A stretch of 64,000 bases of DNA from an uncultured Gemmatimonadales bacterium (GCA_963739455.1 CAVUAK010000003.1:128001-192000), one strand, 5' to 3'; shown: positions 24,101-57,449, counted from the first letter of the stretch. Notes: generated from the sequence alone by a model not told the origin. Translations and numbers: made by a program.

Positions 24101-25471
24101 ATGGATCCAACCACTTCGCCTGAATCGGCACGTCCACGCGTGCTGCTCTCCGGTGACGCCGCCGCGCGACCAGCAGGCCTGGAGCGCGCCCTGTCGCGCG
24201 CCGGCTTCGTGGTGCTCGAGGCCGCCGACGCCGTCGGTCTCGAGGACGAACGGACTGCCGCGCTTGCCCTGGTGACATTGCTCCCGAACGGCACCGGAGT
24301 GGAGAGTCGGTTCGCCGAGGCGCAGGCGCGCGTTGGCTCGTCCGTGCCGCTGGTGCTGCTGCTTGCCGTCGCCGATCCGGAGCACGCCGCCTATGCCCTT
24401 GCCGCCGGTGCCGCCGATGTGATCCAGCCGCCGGTGCATCTCGGTGAGCTCGCGGCGCGACTGGCCGCGCGGCTCCGGGAGCGGGAGCAGGGCCTGGCGA
24501 CCCGCGTCGCGAGCCAGATGGCGCCACTGCTGCAGCGGGCTGGCGGCCCACTTGGCGTCGAGGAAGTGCTCGGCGTCGTCGCGACCCGGTTGGCGCATGC
24601 CCTCGAGCTGGCGCGCTGTGATGCGCTGCTCGTGCATCCCGGCGAACGCCATGCGCGCCGCGTGGCCATCGTGCCCGCAGAACAGTTCATCGATCATCGC
24701 ATCGACCTGTCCAGCTGGCCCGCACTGGTGGATGCCGCGCGCTCGGGTGAAGTGGCCGTGGTACCGACGCCGTCACCGGCGGCGCGGTCGCACGCGGATT
24801 CCGAGGCCCCCAGCGCCATCGCCCTTCCGGTCCGGGGACGAGGCAACGTCGCGGCGGTGTTCCTGCTCGTGCCGCGGGCCGCGCGTCCAGTGCTGTCCGC
24901 TGCTCAACTCGCCTTTGCCCGCGAACTCGCCGCCGCCGCTGGGCCGGTACTCGACGAGGAGCCAGGTGCGCTCGCGCCGGACGGCCATCGCGATCCGCTG
25001 ACCGGTCTCGAGCGGGGTCGCGCGCTCGAGCATCGCATCCGCGTGGAAATGGAGCGGGCCCGGCGCTATGCGCTCGGCGTGGCGCTCGTGCTGCTCGATC
25101 TCGACCAGTTGTCGGCGGTGAACGCGACCCATGGCAGTGATGCCGGAGACCGCCTGCTCAAGGAGTTCGGCGCGCTGCTCGTGCGCGATATGCGCGTGCC
25201 CGACTTCGTGGCTCGTGTCGGCGGGGACGAGTTCGCGCTGCTCCTGCCCGAGACAGGTCTCGAGGGCGCCCGCACCGCCATCCGGCGACTGCGCTATCGC
25301 ATGACCGACCCGGGTTTCGCGCGGGGACTGGACATGCGCCCCACGGTGACTGCCGGCGTGCTCACGCTTCCGTGGCCCGACAGCGACAGACCCGACGATG
25401 TCCTGGCACTCGCCGAAGCCGCGCTTCTCCGCGCGAAAGCTCAAGGCGGAGAACGTATCGGAACGCTCTAG
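24101..25471 (+). CDS. Diguanylate cyclase (degenerate receiver, GAF, GGDEF)
   Basis: DPLTGL, DLDQLSAVN..HG..AGD, RVPD (I-site) followed by GGDEF. Confidence 0.88.
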   Translation: MDPTTSPESARPRVLLSGDAAARPAGLERALSRAGFVVLEAADAVGLEDERTAALALVTLLPNGTGVESRFAEAQARVGSSVPLVLLLAVADPEHAAYALAAGAADVIQPPVHLGELAARLAARLREREQGLATRVASQMAPLLQRAGGPLGVEEVLGVVATRLAHALELARCDALLVHPGERHARRVAIVPAEQFIDHRIDLSSWPALVDAARSGEVAVVPTPSPAARSHADSEAPSAIALPVRGRGNVAAVFLLVPRAARPVLSAAQLAFARELAAAAGPVLDEEPGALAPDGHRDPLTGLERGRALEHRIRVEMERARRYALGVALVLLDLDQLSAVNATHGSDAGDRLLKEFGALLVRDMRVPDFVARVGGDEFALLLPETGLEGARTAIRRLRYRMTDPGFARGLDMRPTVTAGVLTLPWPDSDRPDDVLALAEAALLRAKAQGGERIGTL

Positions 25472-25566
25472 TCGTCGGTCGTCAGTCGGCAGTCGGCAGA
25501 GAGTCAGCAGACGCTCCGCACCAGCACAACTGACGACTTCCTGACGACTGTCGACTGCCGACTGCT
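25471..25566. repeat. Inverted pair of heptamer tandem arrays (GTCGKCA)n ... (TGMCGAC)n
   Basis: Left arm gtcgtcg/gtcgtca/gtcggca/gtcggca/gtcagca (25471-25509); right arm tgacgac/tgacgac/tgtcgac/tgccgac (25531-25562). The pair spans stop to stop between convergent genes. Confidence 0.85.
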
Positions 25567-26752
25567 ATCTCCTTCTGAGCCATGCCGTCGGGTCGAGGGC
25601 AATCTGGTTCTCGCCCCGGATCTCGAAGTGCAGGTGCGGCCCGTAGTCTGTGTTGGCACCGCCCACTGTCCCCACCGTCTGTCCCCGCACCACCTTGTCG
25701 CCCTGCTTCACCGATGCGCTCTGCAGCTGCATGTACAGCGACCAGTAGCCGTTGCCGTGCTCGACCGCGACGGTCAGGCCGTAGGTGCCGACATTGCCCA
25801 CCAGTCCCACTTGGCCACCCTCGACCGCCTTGACCGGGGTCCCGACCGGTGCCCCGATGCCGATGCCATTCCAGCGGATCACCCCGCCGCTTGGCAGCGT
25901 GTCGCGACCGAACTTGTAGACGATGGTGCCTTGCACCGGCCAGTCGAGCTTGCCGAGATCGGCGGTGGTGAGGGAGCCTGCCGTGGGGGCGGTGCCGCGT
26001 GCCGCGGCGCGGGCCGTCTCGTTTTCGCGGCGCTTGTCGGCCGTCGCGAGCAATGACGTAAGCCGCGACGCGTCCTTCTCCAGGGTCGAGAGCTGCTGGT
26101 CAGTATTCTTGGCGCTCCGCTTCAGTGCGACCATGCGCTTCGCCCCCTCGTCCACGAGGGTGCCGTAGCGCTTGAGCTCCGCCTCGCGCTCCTCCTTGGT
26201 GCGGTCGAGCTGGGTACGCACCTCCAGCACGTTGTTGCGCTGCTTCGCGATCCGGTTCCGCAGCGCTTCCACCTCGCCCACGAGCTGCCGGTCCTGCTGG
26301 CTCGTGAGGTACAGGTACTTGTAGCGGCTCACCAGTTCGCCAAACGACTCGACGGTGAGCAGCACCTGGTAGACGTACAGTTGCCCGCGCTTGTAGATGT
26401 CGATGAGCCGGCGCTCGAGGACGGCGTTCCGCTCGGCGAGGTTGTCGGTGGCGAGGATCAGTTCGGCGGTGTTGCGGTCCAGCTGCGACGAGAGGCCGCC
26501 GATCTGCCGGTCGATCTCGTTGACGATGCGATGGGTGCTCTCGCGCTGGCGCTCGAGGTTGCTCAGTTCGTCCTGCACGTCATGCACCTGCCCCTGCAGT
26601 CGCTGCTGCTGCAGCTTGAGCCGGTCCCGCTCGGCGCGGATTTCCTCAAGGCGCCGGCGGGAGGCCTGGATGGAGTCGCTTTGGGCGTGAAGACGTGAAG
26701 ACGTGAAGACGTGAAGTGAACACACCCCGCACATCATGATTACGGTGCTCAT
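25565..26752 (-). CDS. envC: Murein hydrolase activator EnvC family (coiled coil + M23/LytM)
   Basis: Long coiled coil, LDWPVQG, WNGIGI (degenerate HxxxD), HLHFEIR; downstream of ftsEX. Confidence 0.88.
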   Translation of the reverse strand: MSTVIMMCGVCSLHVFTSSRLHAQSDSIQASRRRLEEIRAERDRLKLQQQRLQGQVHDVQDELSNLERQRESTHRIVNEIDRQIGGLSSQLDRNTAELILATDNLAERNAVLERRLIDIYKRGQLYVYQVLLTVESFGELVSRYKYLYLTSQQDRQLVGEVEALRNRIAKQRNNVLEVRTQLDRTKEEREAELKRYGTLVDEGAKRMVALKRSAKNTDQQLSTLEKDASRLTSLLATADKRRENETARAAARGTAPTAGSLTTADLGKLDWPVQGTIVYKFGRDTLPSGGVIRWNGIGIGAPVGTPVKAVEGGQVGLVGNVGTYGLTVAVEHGNGYWSLYMQLQSASVKQGDKVVRGQTVGTVGGANTDYGPHLHFEIRGENQIALDPTAWLRRR

Positions 26753-26826
26753 GGTGCGGCGCCAACCACTGCGGAGTCGTGCACGAAGGACCCTCACGTC
26801 CTCACGTCCTCACGTCTTCACGTCTT
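26686..26826. repeat. Inverted pair of octamer tandem arrays (CGTGAAGA)x4 ... (CCTCACGT/CTTCACGT)x4
   Basis: One arm (26686-26716) lies inside the envC signal-peptide codons; the other (26792-26826) abuts the ftsX stop. Confidence 0.85.
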
Positions 26827-47320: not shown

Positions 47321-48728
47321 ATGTACCGGAAGGTTGGGGCTGGACTTGCAGTGGCGGCGTGGCTCGCGGGTGCGAGCCACGCCGTGGCACAAGTAGACAG
47401 CACAAGCGACAGCACGAAAGTCACGGCGGAGGTGCAGTCCGACCTCGATGCGCAGGCCAGCGCCGACCTCTTTCGGCGCCCGGCCATGTCGGTCGACCGC
47501 ATCGTAGCCATCGTCGGCAAGCAGGCCATCATGCAGTCGCAGCTCGACGAGCAGTTCTTCCAGCTCGCTCGGCGGCATGCCGCCGGCTGCGGCGCCCAAG
47601 ACGGCGGCTGACACCGCCAGGATCCGCAAGCAGGTGCTGTCCGACCTGGTCGATGACGAGCTGCTGGTGCAGGAGGCGGTGCGCGACACGTCGATCAAGG
47701 TCACCGACAAGGAAGTGTTCGATGCCGTGGCTGCGGCGGTCAAGAACATCCGCGACCGCTATACCACGGAAATCGAGTTCACGACCCAGTTGCATGCCGC
47801 AGGGTTTTCCAGCCTGGACGAGTATCGCCGGTTCCTCGCCGAGCAGTCACGACGCGACATGCAGAAGGAACGGCTGAAGCAGCAGCTCAAGGACAAGGGC
47901 AAGCTCAAGCCGATCGCCCCCAGCGAGCAGGAAATGAAGGCGTTCTTCTCGGAGCAGCAGGGACAGTTCGGGAGCCGTCCGGCAACGGTCACGTTCCAGC
48001 AGGTCGTGGTGGCACCGCGGCCATCCGATGCCGCCAAGGCCCGGGCACTCGCGCTGGCCGACTCGATCCTGGCCGAGCTCCGCAAGGGGGCCGACTTCGC
48101 CGTGGCGGCGAAGCGGTTTTCCGCCGACCCCGGCTCACGTGAGCGCGGGGGCGAGCTCGGCTGGGCCCGGCGCGGCGTCTTCGTGCCCGAGTTCGATCGC
48201 GTCGCGTTCTCGCTCAAGATCGGGGTCATTTCGGAGCCGGTGGAGACGCCGTTCGGGTACCACCTCATCCAGGTGATGCGCACCCAGCCCGGCGAGATCC
48301 AGGTGCGGCACATCCTCATTGCGGCCGAGGTGACCGCGGCCGATGTCGACAGTGCGGCGGCGCATGCCCAGCAGGTGTACAGCGCGGCGCTGGCCGGGGC
48401 ATCGTTCGACTCGTTGCAGCGCGCGTGGCACGACGGCACCGAGGAGCGCGAGGCGTCTGCCGTGCCGCTCGACAAGCTCCCCGAGGTGTACAAGCGCGGC
48501 ATCCTCAAGACCGACAGCACGACGATCGTCCCGCCCTTTGCGCTCGAGTCCCCCGGTGGCGGGAAGAAGTACGCGGTCGTGCTGGTCACCGAGCGGCGCG
48601 CGGAGGGCGAGGTGACGTACCAGGACGTGCGCGATCGCGTGCGACAGATTCTCTCCGAGGATCTCGCGGTCCAGAAGTACGTCGCCCAGCTTCGTCGCGC
48701 CACATACGTCGAGGTGCGGGCGTCCTGA
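47321..48728 (+). CDS. surA: SurA-like chaperone/PPIase; frameshift near 47564
   Basis: VDRIVAIVG..AI..SQL (SurA N-terminus); FS.DPGS...GGELGW, VETPFGYHLI, VRHILI; directly upstream of pdxA. Confidence 0.82.
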
Positions 48729-49642
48729 TGCGCCGCCTCGCGGTGACCCTCGGCGATCCGCGCGGCATCGGTCCCGAGATCACCCGGGCGGCGCTGCAGC
48801 TGCCGCTGGACGCCACGGTAACCGTCGTCGGGCCCGACGACCTCATCGAAGACATTCCCGCAACACATCGAATCGGCGTCGGCACCTGGGCCCAGGGCAC
48901 CGGTGACCGGCCCGACCACGCGCGAACGCTGCGTGCTGGCCGCCTGGCGGGCCATGCGGTCGAGGCCGCCGTGCGCCTGGCGCAAGCCGGCGAAGTGGAC
49001 GCCATCGTCACGGCGCCGGCCAACAAGCACGCGCTCCACCTGGCCGGATTTCCGTACCCTGGCCACACCGAATGGCTGGCGCACCTCTGTGGCGACGTAC
49101 CGGTGGCGATGATGCTCGCCTCCGACCGCCTTCGGGTGGTGCTGGTCACGACGCATGTGGCCCTCCGCGACGTGCCGGCGCTGCTTACCAGCGAGCGCAT
49201 CGTGCGGGTGGCACGCACCACCGATCTTGCGCTTCGCGACTGGTGGGGCATCGCGGCGCCCCGGCTGGCGCTCTGCGCGCTCAACCCGCACGCCGGCGAG
49301 TCGGGGCTGTTCGGGGACGAGGAAATCCGTGTGCTGCGCCCGGCCGCCGAGACGGCGCACCTGGCGGGCCCGTTCCCGGCCGACACGGTCTTCGTGCGCG
49401 CAATGCGGGGTGAGTTCGACGCCGTGCTCGCACCCTACCACGATGTCGGCATGACGGCGATCAAGGTCGCGAGCTTCGGCGAGGCCGTGAACGTGACCCT
49501 GGGGTTGCCGTTTCCCCGGACCAGCCCTGATCACGGCACGGCGTTCGACATCGCGGGGAGAGGGACCGCCGATTCGACTTCCATGCGAAGGGCGGTTGAG
49601 CTGGCGGGCGTGTTGTCAAACAGCGTGAGGGGTGAGGGGTGA
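48728..49642 (+). CDS. pdxA: 4-hydroxythreonine-4-phosphate dehydrogenase
   Basis: GDPRGIGPEI, TAPANK, GHTE, LNPHAGE.G.FG.EE, PADT, YHD, RTSPDHGTAFDIAG. Confidence 0.95.
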   Translation: MRRLAVTLGDPRGIGPEITRAALQLPLDATVTVVGPDDLIEDIPATHRIGVGTWAQGTGDRPDHARTLRAGRLAGHAVEAAVRLAQAGEVDAIVTAPANKHALHLAGFPYPGHTEWLAHLCGDVPVAMMLASDRLRVVLVTTHVALRDVPALLTSERIVRVARTTDLALRDWWGIAAPRLALCALNPHAGESGLFGDEEIRVLRPAAETAHLAGPFPADTVFVRAMRGEFDAVLAPYHDVGMTAIKVASFGEAVNVTLGLPFPRTSPDHGTAFDIAGRGTADSTSMRRAVELAGVLSNSVRGEG

Positions 49643-49645
49643 GGG
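49625..49645. repeat. (GTGAGGG)x3, left arm
   Basis: Three perfect heptamers that contain the pdxA stop codon; reverse complement of the 50088-50209 unit. Confidence 0.9.
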
Positions 49646-49723
49646 GGCGATCCGTGCGCTAGAATGGCACTACGCCGAGCCATATGATGCGGTAGGGAGT
49701 GCGCGTATCCCTGAAGCTGTGGC

Positions 49724-50077
49724 ATGCGCGATCATCGATCTTTGGAAGCGTGGCAGGAGGCCCGCTCAACCGTTCTGGAGGTTGTGGCACTGTCGCAGGG
49801 CAGTTGGAAGCCGTGGGCAGCCGCGTTGTTCTCCCAGTTGCAGCGCTCGTCCCTATCTGTTCAGCTGAATCTTGCCGAAGGCTACGCATACGGCAGGACG
49901 CGCACTGCCTTGCGACACTGGCGCATCGCGTATGGATCCGCCATCGAGACGGGAGATCTGGTGCGACTCCTGGGGGACGCCTCGGTGATCGGTCAAGTTG
50001 AGTCGCGCGCAATGGCGCTGCGCAATGATCGCGTGCAGCGGCTTATCTGGGGACTCATTCGGTCGTTGCAGGAATAG
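49724..50077 (+). CDS. Four-helix-bundle protein (23S rRNA IVP / TIGR02436-like, Avd-like fold)
   Basis: MRDHRSLEAWQEA, SQLQRSSLSVQLNLAEG, IAYGSAIET; 117 aa, matching the family pattern (L..WQ.A / Q..R...S...N.AEG / IA.GS..E). Confidence 0.88.
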   Translation: MRDHRSLEAWQEARSTVLEVVALSQGSWKPWAAALFSQLQRSSLSVQLNLAEGYAYGRTRTALRHWRIAYGSAIETGDLVRLLGDASVIGQVESRAMALRNDRVQRLIWGLIRSLQE

Positions 50078-50087
50078 GCCACATTCG

Positions 50088-50209
50088 CCTCACCCCTCAC
50101 CCCTCACCCCTCACCCCTCACCCCTCACCCCTCACCCCTCACCCCTCACCCCTCACCCCTCACCCCTCACCCCTCACCCCTCACCCCTCACCCCTCACCC
50201 CTCACCCCT
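50088..50209. repeat. (CCTCACC)x17 plus a partial copy, right arm
   Basis: 17 perfect heptamer copies (50088-50206) running into the hisG stop. Confidence 0.97.
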
Positions 50210-50838
50210 TACGCTGTTTCCTCCAGCCTCCGCATCACTTCAAGATGTCTCTCGAGCTTCAGCTTCTGGCTGGCGCGATTCGCGATCAGGGTCGCGGTGA
50301 CCGCCAGGATCGTTTCGTGCTCGACCAGTCCGTTGGCGCGAAGCGTACTCCCCGTATCCACCAGGTCCACGATCCAGTGTGACAGCCCCAGCAGTGGCGC
50401 CACCTCGACCGATCCGCCCACCTCGATGATCTCCACCGCCCGGCCGAGTGCGGCGAAGTAGGCGCGCGCGAGGCGAGGATACTTGGTGGCGACGCGCGGC
50501 GTGATACCCCCCGGCAACGACGGATAGGGCACTGCGGCGGGCGCGGCGACCACCAGGCGGCACTGTCCGAAGTCGAGCTCCAGGGGCTCGAGCACGTCGG
50601 GGTTCGCCTCGCGCAGCACATCGGTGCCGGTGATTCCCAGGTCCGCAGCGCCCGACTCGACGTAGATGGGCACGTCACCCGGTTTCACCTCGAGGAACTC
50701 GATGCCCGGTTCCACCGACGGGACCAGCAGGCGACGACCCTTGTCGCTGGCCGGAGCCATGCCGGCCCGGGTGAAGCGCGCGATCGCTGCGTCCCAGAGG
50801 CGGCCCTTGGCGAGGGCAATGCGCAGCGGCGCACTCAC
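50209..50838 (-). CDS. hisG: ATP phosphoribosyltransferase, short form
   Basis: IALAKGRL, DVPIYVE.G.ADLGI.G.DVL.E, RVATKYP, GSVEVAP, IVDLVDTG.TLRANGL; 209 aa. Confidence 0.95.
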   Translation of the reverse strand: MSAPLRIALAKGRLWDAAIARFTRAGMAPASDKGRRLLVPSVEPGIEFLEVKPGDVPIYVESGAADLGITGTDVLREANPDVLEPLELDFGQCRLVVAAPAAVPYPSLPGGITPRVATKYPRLARAYFAALGRAVEIIEVGGSVEVAPLLGLSHWIVDLVDTGSTLRANGLVEHETILAVTATLIANRASQKLKLERHLEVMRRLEETA

Positions 50839-51806
50839 AGCACAAGCTCCGCGATGGCGTCGAGGTCGAGCGACAGGCCGACGGCGGGCATCGGGTGCCC
50901 GAAGCGTCCCATGAGGCCGTCGTACCGGCCGCCCGCCCCCGCGGCCCGCCCCGCCCCCGCCACGAACAGCTCGAACTGCAGGCCGGTGTAGTAGTCGAGG
51001 CCCCGCACCTCGCCCAGGTCGTAGACGACATGCGCCCGCTCCGCGGCGGTGAGGGCCGCATCCAGCGCCAGGAGGTGATCGAGTGCCGGCTGCGCGGCGG
51101 CGCTCGCACTCCCGCGCGCCGTTTCCAGGGCCGCGCGACGGCCCATGACGAACGGCAGCGTGAGGAGGGAGCGCGCATCGCCGTCGAGCGGCGTGAGGGC
51201 GCGGACCAGGCTGCCGCGGTCCTTGCGGTCGATCCAGCGCCGGGCATCAGTCCGGAGCGCCTCGGGGAGCGACGCGAGGGCGGGCGCCAGCGCACCAATG
51301 TGACCCACGTTCAGCTGGAAGTCGCGCAGCCCCACCGCAGCGGCGAGGCGCAGCACCAGGCGGATGAGCTCGAGGTCGGCGGCAAGCCCTGCAGCGCCGA
51401 GCAGTTCCGCGCCCACCTGGAGGATCTCGCGCGGGCGCGCCCCGCGGTCGGGCTCCTGGCGGTACACCTTCCCGGAGTAGCAGAGGCGGAGCGGCAGCGG
51501 CCGGTCGGCAAAGGCGGTGGCCGCCACGCGTGCCACGCTGGCGGTGAAATCGTATCGGAGTGCGAGGGCCCGGCCGTCGAGGTCGAGGAAGCGGATGAGG
51601 CGCTCGATCACTGTGGGTCCGCCGGCGCGCACGAAGATCTCCTCGTACTCGAAAGTGGGCGGGCTCACCTCCTCGAACCCCGCCTCCTCGAGCACCGTGA
51701 GCGTCGCCCGCTGGAGCGCGCGCCGACGCCGCACGGCTTCACCGGTGAGGTCGAGCGCGCCAGGGGGCACGAGGGCAATCGCCGAGCGTGGCAGCGGGCC
51801 GCTCAT
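50835..51806 (-). CDS. hisZ: ATP phosphoribosyltransferase regulatory subunit
   Basis: LRYDFTASVAR, RLCYSG.V.R, QVGAEL, LDYYTG, GGRYD.L...FG..PAVG; adjacent to short hisG and lacks the anticodon domain. Confidence 0.92.
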   Translation of the reverse strand: MSGPLPRSAIALVPPGALDLTGEAVRRRRALQRATLTVLEEAGFEEVSPPTFEYEEIFVRAGGPTVIERLIRFLDLDGRALALRYDFTASVARVAATAFADRPLPLRLCYSGKVYRQEPDRGARPREILQVGAELLGAAGLAADLELIRLVLRLAAAVGLRDFQLNVGHIGALAPALASLPEALRTDARRWIDRKDRGSLVRALTPLDGDARSLLTLPFVMGRRAALETARGSASAAAQPALDHLLALDAALTAAERAHVVYDLGEVRGLDYYTGLQFELFVAGAGRAAGAGGRYDGLMGRFGHPMPAVGLSLDLDAIAELVL

Positions 51807-53174: not shown

Positions 53175-54506
53175 ATGATCCGCCGTCTCGTCGTTCCGCC
53201 GCTGGAGGGGCTTCGGCCCTTCCTGCCGCAACAGGGTCCTGCGGACACGGCGACGCGGCAGACGGTTGCGCGCATCCTTCAGCGAGTCGCCACCGAGGGC
53301 GACCGCGCGGTGCAGGCGCTCACCCGGGAACTCGATGGCCTCGACCTGTCCCCCACGGCTTGGGAAGTGCCGCGGGCAGAATGGGTTGCGGCACTGGGCC
53401 GACTGCCCGCACCGCTCCGGGCGGCGCTCGAGCTGGCGGTGCGTCGCGTGCGCAGCTATCACGAGCGGCAGCGCGATCCGGGGTTCGCCGTCACCGAGCC
53501 CGACGGGACGATCCTCGGCATGAAGGTGACGCCGCTCGATCGCGTGGGACTCTACGTGCCAGGTGGAAAGGCATCGTATCCGTCCTCCGTCATCATGAAC
53601 GCCGTGCCCGCCGTCGTCGCCGGCGTCCGCGACATTGTCGCGGTTACGCCTCCCGGCGGCTTCCTCACCGACGCTGTCCTTGCCGCCTGTCACCTTGCCG
53701 GGGTCACGCAGCTATTCCGCATTGGCGGTGCACAGGCCGTGGCGGCGCTGGCATACGGTACGGAGACCATACCGCGCGTGGACAAGATCGTGGGCCCTGG
53801 AAGCCGCTGGGTGGCCGAGGCGAAGCGGCAGGTCATCGGGATGGTGGGCATCGACTCGATCGCCGGACCCACAGAACTGCTGGTGATCGCCGATGACTCG
53901 ACTGATGCACTGCGGGTGGCCACCGACCTCATCGCACAGGCCGAGCACGACGAGGATGCCTCGGCCTGGTGCGTCACGACATCGGCCGCACTGGCCGATG
54001 CGCTCCCGGCTGCCCTCGAGGCAGTGCTGTCCCTTGCCCCGCGCGAGGCTATCGCGCGCGCCTCGCTCGAGCGCAATGGCATGGTGATCCTGGTGCCTGC
54101 CATCGACGATGCCATCCGCGTGGCCAACCTGCGCGCACCGGAGCACCTGGAAATCCTCGCTCGCGACGCCGGCACGGTGGCCGCAGGTATCCGCCACGCC
54201 GGCGCCATCTTCATCGGGCGCTTCACTCCCGAGCCGGTGGGAGACTACATCGCCGGCCCGAGTCACGTCCTGCCCACCAGCGGCACGGCGCGCTATGCCT
54301 CCCCGCTCGGCGTGTACGACTTCATCAAGCGCACGAGCGTCATCCAGTACAGCGCAGCCCGGCTCGCGGAAGACGCGCCGCACATCATCGCGCTCGCGGA
54401 GGCGGAGCAGCTGGCGGGGCACGCGGAAGCGGTGCGGCTGGCGGCGGGAAGTCAGGCGGCGGGAAGTCAGGCGGCAGGAAGTCAGGGGGACGGGTTCACA
54501 GAATGA
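53175..54506 (+). CDS. hisD: Histidinol dehydrogenase
   Basis: VGLYVPGG.A.YPSSV.MN, GGAQAVAALAYGT, IDSIAGPTE, AQAEHD, APEHLE, GDYIAGPSHVLPT. Confidence 0.97.
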   Translation: MIRRLVVPPLEGLRPFLPQQGPADTATRQTVARILQRVATEGDRAVQALTRELDGLDLSPTAWEVPRAEWVAALGRLPAPLRAALELAVRRVRSYHERQRDPGFAVTEPDGTILGMKVTPLDRVGLYVPGGKASYPSSVIMNAVPAVVAGVRDIVAVTPPGGFLTDAVLAACHLAGVTQLFRIGGAQAVAALAYGTETIPRVDKIVGPGSRWVAEAKRQVIGMVGIDSIAGPTELLVIADDSTDALRVATDLIAQAEHDEDASAWCVTTSAALADALPAALEAVLSLAPREAIARASLERNGMVILVPAIDDAIRVANLRAPEHLEILARDAGTVAAGIRHAGAIFIGRFTPEPVGDYIAGPSHVLPTSGTARYASPLGVYDFIKRTSVIQYSAARLAEDAPHIIALAEAEQLAGHAEAVRLAAGSQAAGSQAAGSQGDGFTE

Positions 54507-55459: not shown

Positions 55460-55600
55460 TCTGGAAGTCGGTGCGGGAGCGGCACTTCCGGAGGGGTCGG
55501 GCGGTCTCTTGCGGTGCCGACCGTCGCAGTCTATATATGCGCCGCTCAGGCCCCGTCCGGGGTCACAACGTTGGTGAATTCGCAGGGGAAGCGGCACACA

Positions 55601-57449
55601 GTGATTCGTAACATTGCAATCATCGCGCACGTCGACCACGGCAAGACCACCATGGTCGACCAGATGCTCCGGCAGGCCGGGGCGTTTCGCGCGAACCAGC
55701 ACGTCGAAGAGCGCGTCATGGACTCGAATCCGCTCGAAAAGGAGCGGGGCATCACCATCCTGGCGAAGAACACGTCGGTCAACTGGCATGGCACGAAGAT
55801 CAACATCGTGGACACGCCGGGACACGCCGACTTCGGTGGTGAGGTCGAGCGCATCCTGCGCATGGTCGACGGCTTCGTGCTGCTGGTGGACGCCGCCGAA
55901 GGCCCGATGCCGCAGACGCGGTTCGTCACCCGGAAGGCGCTGGCACTGGGGCTCAAGCCGATCGTGGCGATCAACAAGATCGACCGCTCCGATGCCGAGC
56001 CGCTGCGGGTGCACGACGAGGTGCTGGGCCTGTTCATCGACCTCGAGGCGACGCACGAGCAGCTCGACGCGCCGTTCCTCTACACCTCGAGCCGCGCCGG
56101 CACCGCCACGCCCGAGCTCGATCATCCCGGCACGGACCTGTCGCCGCTGTTCCAGGCGGTCATCGACAACATCGCGGCGCCCACCGGCGACCCCGAGGGC
56201 CCGTTCCAGATGCTCGTGTCCACGCTCGACTTCTCGACGTTCCTCGGTCGCATCGCGATCGGTCGCATCGAGCGCGGCCGGGTGCGTGTCGGCGACCAGG
56301 TGTCCCTGCTGCCCATGGGCGAGCCGGGAATGGTGGTGGATGAGCCGATGGAGAACGGCCGAGTCACCAAGCTGTACACCTTCGACGGTCTCGCCCGCGT
56401 CGACGTGCAGGAAGCGAGCGCCGGCGATATCGTCTGCCTGGCCGGCTTCGAGACCATCGAAATCGGCAAGACGTTCACCTCCATCGAGCATGCCCGAGCG
56501 GCTGCTCGGCATCGCGGTGGAAGAGCCGACGATCTCGGTCGACTTCATCGTGAACAACGGGCCGTTCGCCGGGCGCGACGGCAAGTACGTCACCAGCCGC
56601 CAGCTGCGCGACCGGCTCTACAAGGAGCTCGAGCGCAACGTGGCGCTGCGGGTCGAGCCGACGGACACGCCCGACACGCACTCCGTCTCGGGACGCGGCG
56701 AGCTGCACCTCGGCATCCTCATGGAGACGATGCGGCGCGAGGGCTACGAGTTCCAGGTGTCGCGTCCGCGGGTCATCACCCGCACCGGCGAGAACGGCGA
56801 GCGCCAGGAGCCGTATGAGGAGCTGATGATCGACGTCCCCGAGGAGTACATGGGCGTCGTGATGGAGCGGCTCGGGCCACGCCGTGCCGAGATGAAGGAA
56901 ATGAAGAACAACGGCACCGGCCTGGTGCGGCTCACGTTCAAGATCCCGGCGCGCGGCCTGTTCGGCTACCGCTCCGAGTTCCTGACCGACACCCGCGGCA
57001 ACGGGATCATCCACCACCGGTTCCTCGAGTACGGACCGTGGGCTGGCCCGCTGGCCGGCCGGAAGCGCGGGGTGCTGGTGGCCGACCGCGAGGGCGCCGT
57101 GGTGGCGTTCGCGCTGGGCAACCTGCAGGAGCGGGCCCAGATGTTCGTGGCGCCCACCGACCTGGTGTACGAGGGCATGATCGCGGGCGAGAACTCCCGC
57201 CCGGGCGACCTCGACGTTAATGTGACGAAGGAAAAGAAGCTCACGAACATGCGCGCGTCCGGATCCGACGATAACATCCTGCTGGAACCGCCGCGCCAGA
57301 TCACCCTCGAGTACGCGATGGAATACATCGAGGAGGACGAGCTGATCGAAGTAACCCCGAAGACGATCCGCCTGCGCAAGCGCGTCCTGCAGGTGAATGA
57401 TCGGAAGAAGGCTGCCAGGGCCGCCGCCCGGGTAGCGGACGCGTCGTGA
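55601..57449 (+). CDS. typA: Translational GTPase TypA/BipA; frameshift near 56492
   Basis: [36 protein letters not shown]; then, in the next frame, [37 protein letters not shown]. Confidence 0.95.

Follow-up and report, generated by a model that had tools for sequence, protein, structure and literature searches.

Among the closest described systems are the intervening sequences (IVSs) of 23S rRNA genes. In the Coxiella IVS a gene of the family discussed here, S23p, sits in the loop of a terminal stem of ~28 bp, and tandem heptamers lie upstream of the S23p ORF (available part of PMC4990558); the relative Xcc0516 is cited in the same text as a homopentameric toroid. Avd, known from the DGR systems, is pentameric and protects or binds a defined RNA site of ~27 nt (accessible portions of PMC6182149 and PMC10053308). 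REPIN–RAYT systems, as far as the available text of 10.1101/2021.07.10.451892 describes them, consist of a single-copy gene that keeps to one intergenic site between repeats of its own, with dispersed extragenic inverted doublets that belong to each gene type and decay without the gene.

A further body of work concerns short tandem repeats in their own right. The heptamers of Xanthomonas and Nostoc occur in arrays of about four units (four being the mode in Xanthomonas), place their G-rich strand after coding-strand stops and form convergent inverted pairs (available part of PMC4692102); like the repeats of Beggiatoaceae, they contain stops in all three frames, and the accessible text of the two reports names no cognate protein (PMC4692102, PMC4679880). 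In the Xanthomonas table, a GGGAATC array directly upstream of XCC0516 is an ordinary row (PMC4692102, in the part available). The Coxiella heptamers before the S23p ORF and the Xanthomonas array before XCC0516 are thus already in print. No description of a link between PF05635 and a dispersed tandem word was found in the literature searched, which lacked most subscription papers.

The cassette described here lies between the protein genes pdxA and hisG, and not in an rRNA gene as a 23S rRNA IVS would, in the genome of an uncultured Gemmatimonadales bacterium (G000; 3.6 Mb, 84% complete). Positions refer to the window, that is, the whole stretch of 64,000 nt that was analysed.

48728..49642, plus strand: pdxA (TIGR00557 above cut-off); the left arm supplies its last codons and TGA stop (49640-49642)
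49618..49646, plus strand: left arm, head AAACAGC followed by (GTGAGGG)x3.1, purine-rich strand pointing inward; array proper 49625-49646, 100% match
49644..49652, plus strand: left-arm tail GGGGCGATC, common to two dispersed arrays of the same word
49660..49665, plus strand: TAGAAT, a possible second -10 box, no -35 match
49713..49718, plus strand: GAAGCT, which fits NANNNT 11 nt before the ATG and is the likely -10 element for leaderless transcription
49724..50077, plus strand: four-helix-bundle gene, 117 aa, PF05635/TIGR02436, of a divergent 'MRDH' subfamily from one Gemmatimonadota family
50088..50219, minus strand: right arm, reading on that strand head AAACAGC, GTAAGGG (contains the hisG stop), then GTGAGGG repeats; array proper (CCTCACC)x17.4 at 50088-50209, 100% match
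50209..50838, minus strand: hisG, short form, convergent with pdxA (TIGR00070 above cut-off); stop TAA 50209-50211

The original prediction had recognised (GTGAGGG)x3, TAGAAT, a 117-aa ORF and (CCTCACC)x17, together filling the gap from the pdxA stop to the hisG stop. All of this was confirmed, and the inverted repeat proved even longer: positions 49618-49646 are complementary to 50191-50219 at 28/29 bases, reaching into the last codons of both neighbouring genes, with the pdxA TGA inside the left array and the hisG TAA (minus strand) at the outer edge of the right one. The 17.4 copies of the right array, as assembled, are the most among 410 typed arrays of the genome, the median being 3.9. 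The array is not an assembly invention, because an independent run contains a 259-nt contig from a near-identical strain (2 differences in 238 bases of the gene) that, as its two pieces read, continues on the right into 20 or more bases of repeat.

Several peculiarities of the surrounding window may be recorded here. A CBS-domain gene splits hisZ–hisG (short form), which point towards pdxA, from hisD (50209-51806); the last codons of hisD hold a 15-nt repeat x3.1 translated as AAGSQ repeats (54440-54486); and a typA/bipA-like gene, named from its translation, extends over two frames (55514-57449), probably owing to a long-read assembly error.

The TAGAAT box is present as described and recurs ~65 nt before the ATG in the sister genome G008, but its role as -10 element passes to a likelier candidate, GAAGCT. 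Among family members, the motif NANNNT is found at -12 in 44/85 and at -11 in 27/85, and at any other offset in 11 at most; a sigma-70 promoter scan at the cassette gave no match. The pattern suggests that the four-helix-bundle genes are transcribed leaderless from inside the arms, and with such a likely promoter the cassette would work in either orientation.

The earlier interpretation was an IVS-like unit, bounded by the paired arms, that leaves the RNA by looping out and cutting or the DNA by excision. The capacity of the arms to pair stands: a 29-bp stem of -63 kcal/mol closes the predicted fold, giving the complementary, stem-forming termini of an IVS, and the Coxiella element combines a 28-bp stem with heptamer repeats (PMC4990558, in its available part). 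Empty hairpins at the same junction in G014 and G018 would also suit excision. The folding z is, however, merely -2.06, and excision restores no message since pdxA and hisG are convergent. RNase III (TIGR02191), which excises the Coxiella IVS, was found in 0/5 genomes (G000, G005, G006, G008 and G018, four of them 97-100% complete), which goes against the RNA excision that had been proposed. The outer ends show no target duplication of the kind that marks a MITE or mobile insertion cassette, but the insertion is old, with a long residence at the site. Unlike a 23S rRNA IVS, moreover, the cassette combines purifying selection and a likely promoter of its own with a genome-wide repeat family. 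An IVS-like unit is therefore improbable in our judgement.

The 117-aa protein scores 61.2 bits against TIGR02436 (cut-off 24) and 60.9 against PF05635 (cut-off 33.8). Its predicted model (pLDDT 96.5) matches the 2GSC chains of Xcc0516 (TM 0.86-0.90), BT_0352 and Avd (4DWL/8UB7; TM 0.77-0.81), bearing out the suspected kinship of fold with the IVS protein and with Avd, the latter at 7-8% identity. Four modelled copies gave a homo-oligomer score of 0.62 against 0.00 for the best control (agreement 97%, pLDDT at least 85), a value that may reflect the likeness to 2GSC; the mark set for this score was reached by 20/30 known pairs and 1/23 single chains. The models thus make oligomerisation likely, and by analogy with its solved relatives the protein is predicted to form a ring. 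By sequence comparison the gene is under purifying selection, with pN of 0.18-0.35 against pS of 0.62-0.84 in 6 in-frame pairs (of 15; the 9 pairs with G001 and G006 were left out, their frame having been lost in extraction). Its divergence is far above that of pdxA (identity 48-65% vs 88-93%).

Despite the shared fold with Avd, no reverse transcriptase (PF00078) accompanies the family in this genus: 0/12 genomes (G000 and 11 other members, some incomplete) contain one, against 5/41 overall. The transposase search, which covered the Y1 type (PF01797), found none in G000 and one in the 11 other genus genomes, some of them incomplete, and that one lacks these arrays. With no reverse transcriptase, Y1 transposase or RNase III found, the cassette falls outside the IVS, DGR and REPIN–RAYT systems.

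What the cassette does possess is a large set of dispersed copies of its repeat type. Depending on the threshold, G000 contains 334-429 arrays of period 7-9 in six main families, with a detection floor of ~2.6 units and none in a Markov control (47/Mb for 7-mers and 22/Mb for 8-mers, against 0/Mb in the fifth-order control). These arrays are of the same repeat class as the TAACTGA repeats of Beggiatoaceae (PMC4679880, available part) and show the Xanthomonas habits of a median of 3.9 copies, position after stops and pairs of one polarity. Relative to genes called with a home-made finder that missed low-GC3 genes, the purine-rich strand begins at the stop codon of a same-strand gene in 161/390 merged arrays and stands behind a start codon in 59/390, each against ~13 at random, while 67/390 lie within genes. 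Words free of stops follow stops as well (GGGAACA 15/30, 9-mer 22/95). A complementary partner comes within 150 nt after the purine-rich arm in 63 arrays and never before it within 700 nt, and all 32 close pairs share this polarity.

The arrays agree beyond their repeats. A head motif AAC[ACT][AG]C precedes 9/26 GTGAG arrays and 14/30 GGGAACA arrays (background 0.2%), and the tail GGGGCGATC ends 3/26 arrays of the GTGAG family, including the left arm of the cassette. Head and tail shared in this way point to copying from a common template and not to slippage alone.

That inverted pairs arise merely from convergent genes, each with its own array, was considered and rejected, since the purD–mutM cassette and many empty pairs have neighbouring genes that run in the same direction. 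Other cargo between arrays was also sought: GxxExxY was not found, and one weak DUF559 and two GIY-YIG matches in long frames were set aside. Longer array-to-array spans in G000 enclose ordinary enzymes and resemble neighbouring arrays. Along contig C1 as a whole, long stretches favour one array polarity over the other. A separate imperfect hairpin repeat of ~85 nt separates small ORFs, mostly without a Pfam match, at L357:158-242 and 620-650, L359:802-886 and L360:180-264, loci that lie on C1 of G000 near 2.405, 2.550 and 2.553 Mb; a further repeat family or a cassette array like that of an integron may be present here.

The position after stops raises the question of a domesticated regulon, in which the protein would bind arrays in mRNA ends and set termination or stability, the arrays being selected sites and the arms autoregulating the gene. 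The strand bias just described, stop-free words included, would fit such a role; purifying selection that keeps the gene at one site agrees with it, as does the transcription of most Xanthomonas repeats (PMC4692102, in the available text). Against it, the arrays at orthologous sites vanish or switch word between close species. The 67 arrays inside genes, the re-use of junctions by unrelated cassettes and the lack of the family from 8/41 genomes also count against a regulon, which we regard as unlikely.

Such rewriting of sites is seen within the window itself, where two array pairs without a gene have cognate paralogues elsewhere on the chromosome.

25470..25565: gene-less array pair of the AGTCG.. 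family, cognate paralogue at G000:C1:2353092
26686..26826: gene-less array pair of the GACGTGAR 8-mer family, cognate paralogue at G000:C1:1832099

At the second of these sites, GACGTGAR is found in the three species that have that gene, and G001 and G007 carry other 8-mers, which match their local paralogues; in general, the relatives have their own species' words in place of the window's gene-less hairpins, or no hairpin. These pairs had been suggested as possible empty sites, an idea that their different words and the absence of such a gene there in 6/6 relatives examined do not support.

The main point, absent from the original prediction, is that each gene of the family is paired with its own genome-wide repeat family, as judged from the sequences. 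All 5/5 family genes in G000 are bracketed by inverted arrays on inspection, with five different words, which account for 5/6 of the dispersed array families of the genome; the chance of five different words is ~0.05. Two of the five have weak arms (scores 27 and 34), and one gene is in two pieces. Across the phylum, from which about 95 of 118 family matches were retrieved as loci, an inverted-repeat score of at least 35 is reached by 91/120 full-length loci, against 3% of shuffled pairs and 4/794 other small genes; 29/120 remain below this threshold, two of them in G000, and direct repeats occur at 5/120. Metagenome contigs of 31-71% GC gave inverted arms at 38/62 loci with enough flank (among 80 listed) versus 1.7%, with direct repeats at 7. 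Paralogues are thus repeat-flanked, as had been anticipated. Many different sites harbour cassettes, plasmids (25 records) among them.

Among relatives it is the protein, and neither site nor genome, that the word tracks. In the 98 loci whose word is clear, words grow more alike as the proteins do (rho 0.30 with protein identity, over 4543 pairs that differ in both genome and site; maximum of 300 permutations 0.11). Between distant proteins no resemblance of words above background is left, even if they share a genome or a site. As kin do not count as independent samples, this correlation speaks of co-inheritance and not of binding. No residue-to-base code emerged from covariation over all 68 heptamer loci; the top signal links one column to word position 2 (0.35 vs null 0.28, uncorrected for kinship), and the 117-aa protein deviates from it.

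These pairings bear on whether the gene is a mere passenger, surviving inside hairpins that a host process makes and homogenises, and moving together with flanks on which it does not act. A passenger would fit the array families that lack a cognate gene (in G023, and GGGAACA in G000) and the absence of a known enzyme activity, and homogenisation within a genome accounts for matching variants. Against this, a four-helix-bundle gene sits in each of the three pairs listed for G000 whose arrays are 350-700 nt apart, words differ per paralogue within one genome, and genomes free of the family have none. Paralogue-specific words, and no arrays without the family, are unexpected under a gene-blind process, and we hold a passive gene to be quite unlikely.

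The dependence of dispersed words on the gene was followed as overlapping pattern matches in 41 genomes, 8 of which lack the family. GTRARVG has 39-158 matches in nine genomes, eight of them with such arms around a family gene, and at most 7 in the other 32. In G008, where the arms have changed to another word, 5 matches remain versus 39-149 in the other seven species with the gene at the pdxA–hisG junction; the new word is barely dispersed, occurring at 2 places outside the cassette. GACGTGAR has 21-212 matches in four genomes with the cognate gene, 16 (G001) and 2 in two without it, and 0 in 35. AGTCG.. has 137, 116, 26, 15 and 7 matches in genomes with the cognate gene, and 40 (G007) and 5 where none was found, in genomes 60% and 77% complete. 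GGGAACW has 72 in G009 with the cognate gene and 31 in G000 without; for the GGGAACA family of G000 (about 30-40 arrays) no cognate gene was found in the genome, which is 84% complete. For GTRARVG the exception is G023 (98% complete), with 158 matches and such arms at 0/4 family genes. Its arrays include many long ones of GTGAGCG (for example C4:22538-22621 and C6:8771-8889) with no cognate gene, and the genome has three reverse transcriptases. Three genomes without the gene family have 0 arrays in 316 kb, 26 being expected at the G000 rate; G017, with no family gene, has one array in 10 kb.

The match extends to single bases. The commonest tested dispersed variant is that of the cassette arm in 7/7 species (G000, G001, G003, G004, G006, G007, G009; all but two species-variant cells covered). 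In G000, GTRAGGG has 51 matches (16 within the cassette) versus 5, 0 and 0 for the other variants; G003 has 56 of GTRAGCG and G007 117 of GTRAGAG; and GTRAACR prevails in G001 (111), G004 (99), G006 (86) and G009 (31), with large second variants in G006 (GTRAGGG 47) and G004 (GTRAGCG 58). Arms and dispersed copies would also come to match by concerted evolution inside each genome, and these links are correlations among kin.

With the exceptions named (G023, GGGAACA and others), the cassette thus has the gene-specific and gene-dependent dispersed repeats of a REPIN–RAYT system. It differs in having no HUH/Y1 transposase and a protein without a known catalytic site, in units that are non-palindromic tandem 7-9-mers and not palindromic REPs, and in its presence at many different sites and on plasmids. 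By analogy, it would work like REPIN–RAYT without a transposase.

The history of the pdxA–hisG junction was traced in 30 pdxA loci plus G007. G000, G008 and G009 (the last with a frameshift in its assembly) have the gene on the pdxA strand, and G001, G003, G004, G006 and G007 have it on the opposite one; short repeat hairpins without the gene occupy the junction in G014 and G018, it is bare in G016 and G023, and G005 has another ORF there. The remaining pdxA loci have other neighbours, and G020 carries an unrelated family member. The junction can therefore be bare, an empty hairpin, or a gene in either orientation, as a check of presence or absence at the orthologous site was meant to reveal. 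The gene is no recent insert, having been kept here in 8 related species under purifying selection.

The two orientations invite the idea of an invertible switch, in which the arms recombine and flip the gene, or of phase variation by slippage, in which the length of the 17-copy array tunes it. The AU test did not reject monophyly of the copies at this site (p 0.34, from 5000 replicates, a number flagged as low), as a switch would allow. Each orientation is nevertheless its own clade (bootstrap 88 and 89), which fits one old flip or replacement and not switching, and the likely promoter within the arms would flip together with the gene. A switch is accordingly a most improbable account, and the sequence history fits one old inversion or replacement.

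Species grouping was taken from flanking genes, rpoB being too patchy (12/19 genomes). G000 groups with G009 in the pdxA and hisG trees and with G008 by longer flanks, all with weak support. Comparison with G009 hints at homologous exchange of the whole pdxA–cassette–hisG block (48728-50838). Elsewhere, the same junctions hold unrelated cassettes with different words, sometimes in opposite orientation (L001/L058 vs L062; L002/L013/L056/L059/L019 vs L033; L074 vs L023).

We lean, with moderate confidence, towards a ring protein that reads about four single-stranded repeat units and tilts the host's repair or recombination towards copying or keeping its word at gene ends. One short tandem-repeat family of the genome would have the cassette as its gene-bearing copy, the gene lying, probably with its own leaderless promoter, between two inward-pointing arrays of its word. 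The ring would likely bind this word in single-stranded form, DNA or RNA, over about four units; TRAP is a model for the manner in which a ring reads a single-stranded repeat. A reading of about four units is favoured because the 27-nt RNA site of Avd is close to the median array of 3.9 units. Thus bound, the protein would likely seed or maintain arrays of its word at the ends of genes all along the chromosome; the chemistry would likely fall to host enzymes of repair or recombination, and the whole hairpin-bounded unit would occasionally move. This scheme builds on what can be read directly from the genomes, namely anatomy, polarity, a word per paralogue, arrays absent without the family, sites rewritten and junctions re-used; from these we infer expression, ring formation, binding, DNA or RNA as ligand, a copying step and movement of the unit. 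We know of no catalytic site in the PF05635 family, which leaves the copying step unexplained.

A broader and more tentative reading, which we would put forward as possible and somewhat short of an even bet, is that rings of PF05635 proteins read tandem words of 7-9 nt sequence-specifically and serve in trans in a selfish system, free of transposase and reverse transcriptase, that writes its own word into gene ends, with one satellite family per paralogue. The 23S rRNA IVSs would then be the gene-bearing form landed in rRNA, and the heptamer excess of many bacterial genomes would be the product of the system.

The pairing of gene and word joins two orphans: a very large protein family whose record so far consists of structures and rRNA inserts, and the excess of heptamers in bacteria, which has lacked an explanation. 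The pdxA–hisG locus adds a junction with three states and two orientations, and a match between arm and dispersed arrays at single-base level across species. Five proteins and five words in a single genome amount to a built-in specificity matrix and, if the proposal is true, to a natural set of small proteins that differ in the nucleic-acid words they prefer. If the protein drives the spread, repeats would be propagated without a transposase or reverse transcriptase, and a protein that, as seems likely here, recognises and helps to spread its own repeat would explain the 7-8-base repeats of many bacteria.
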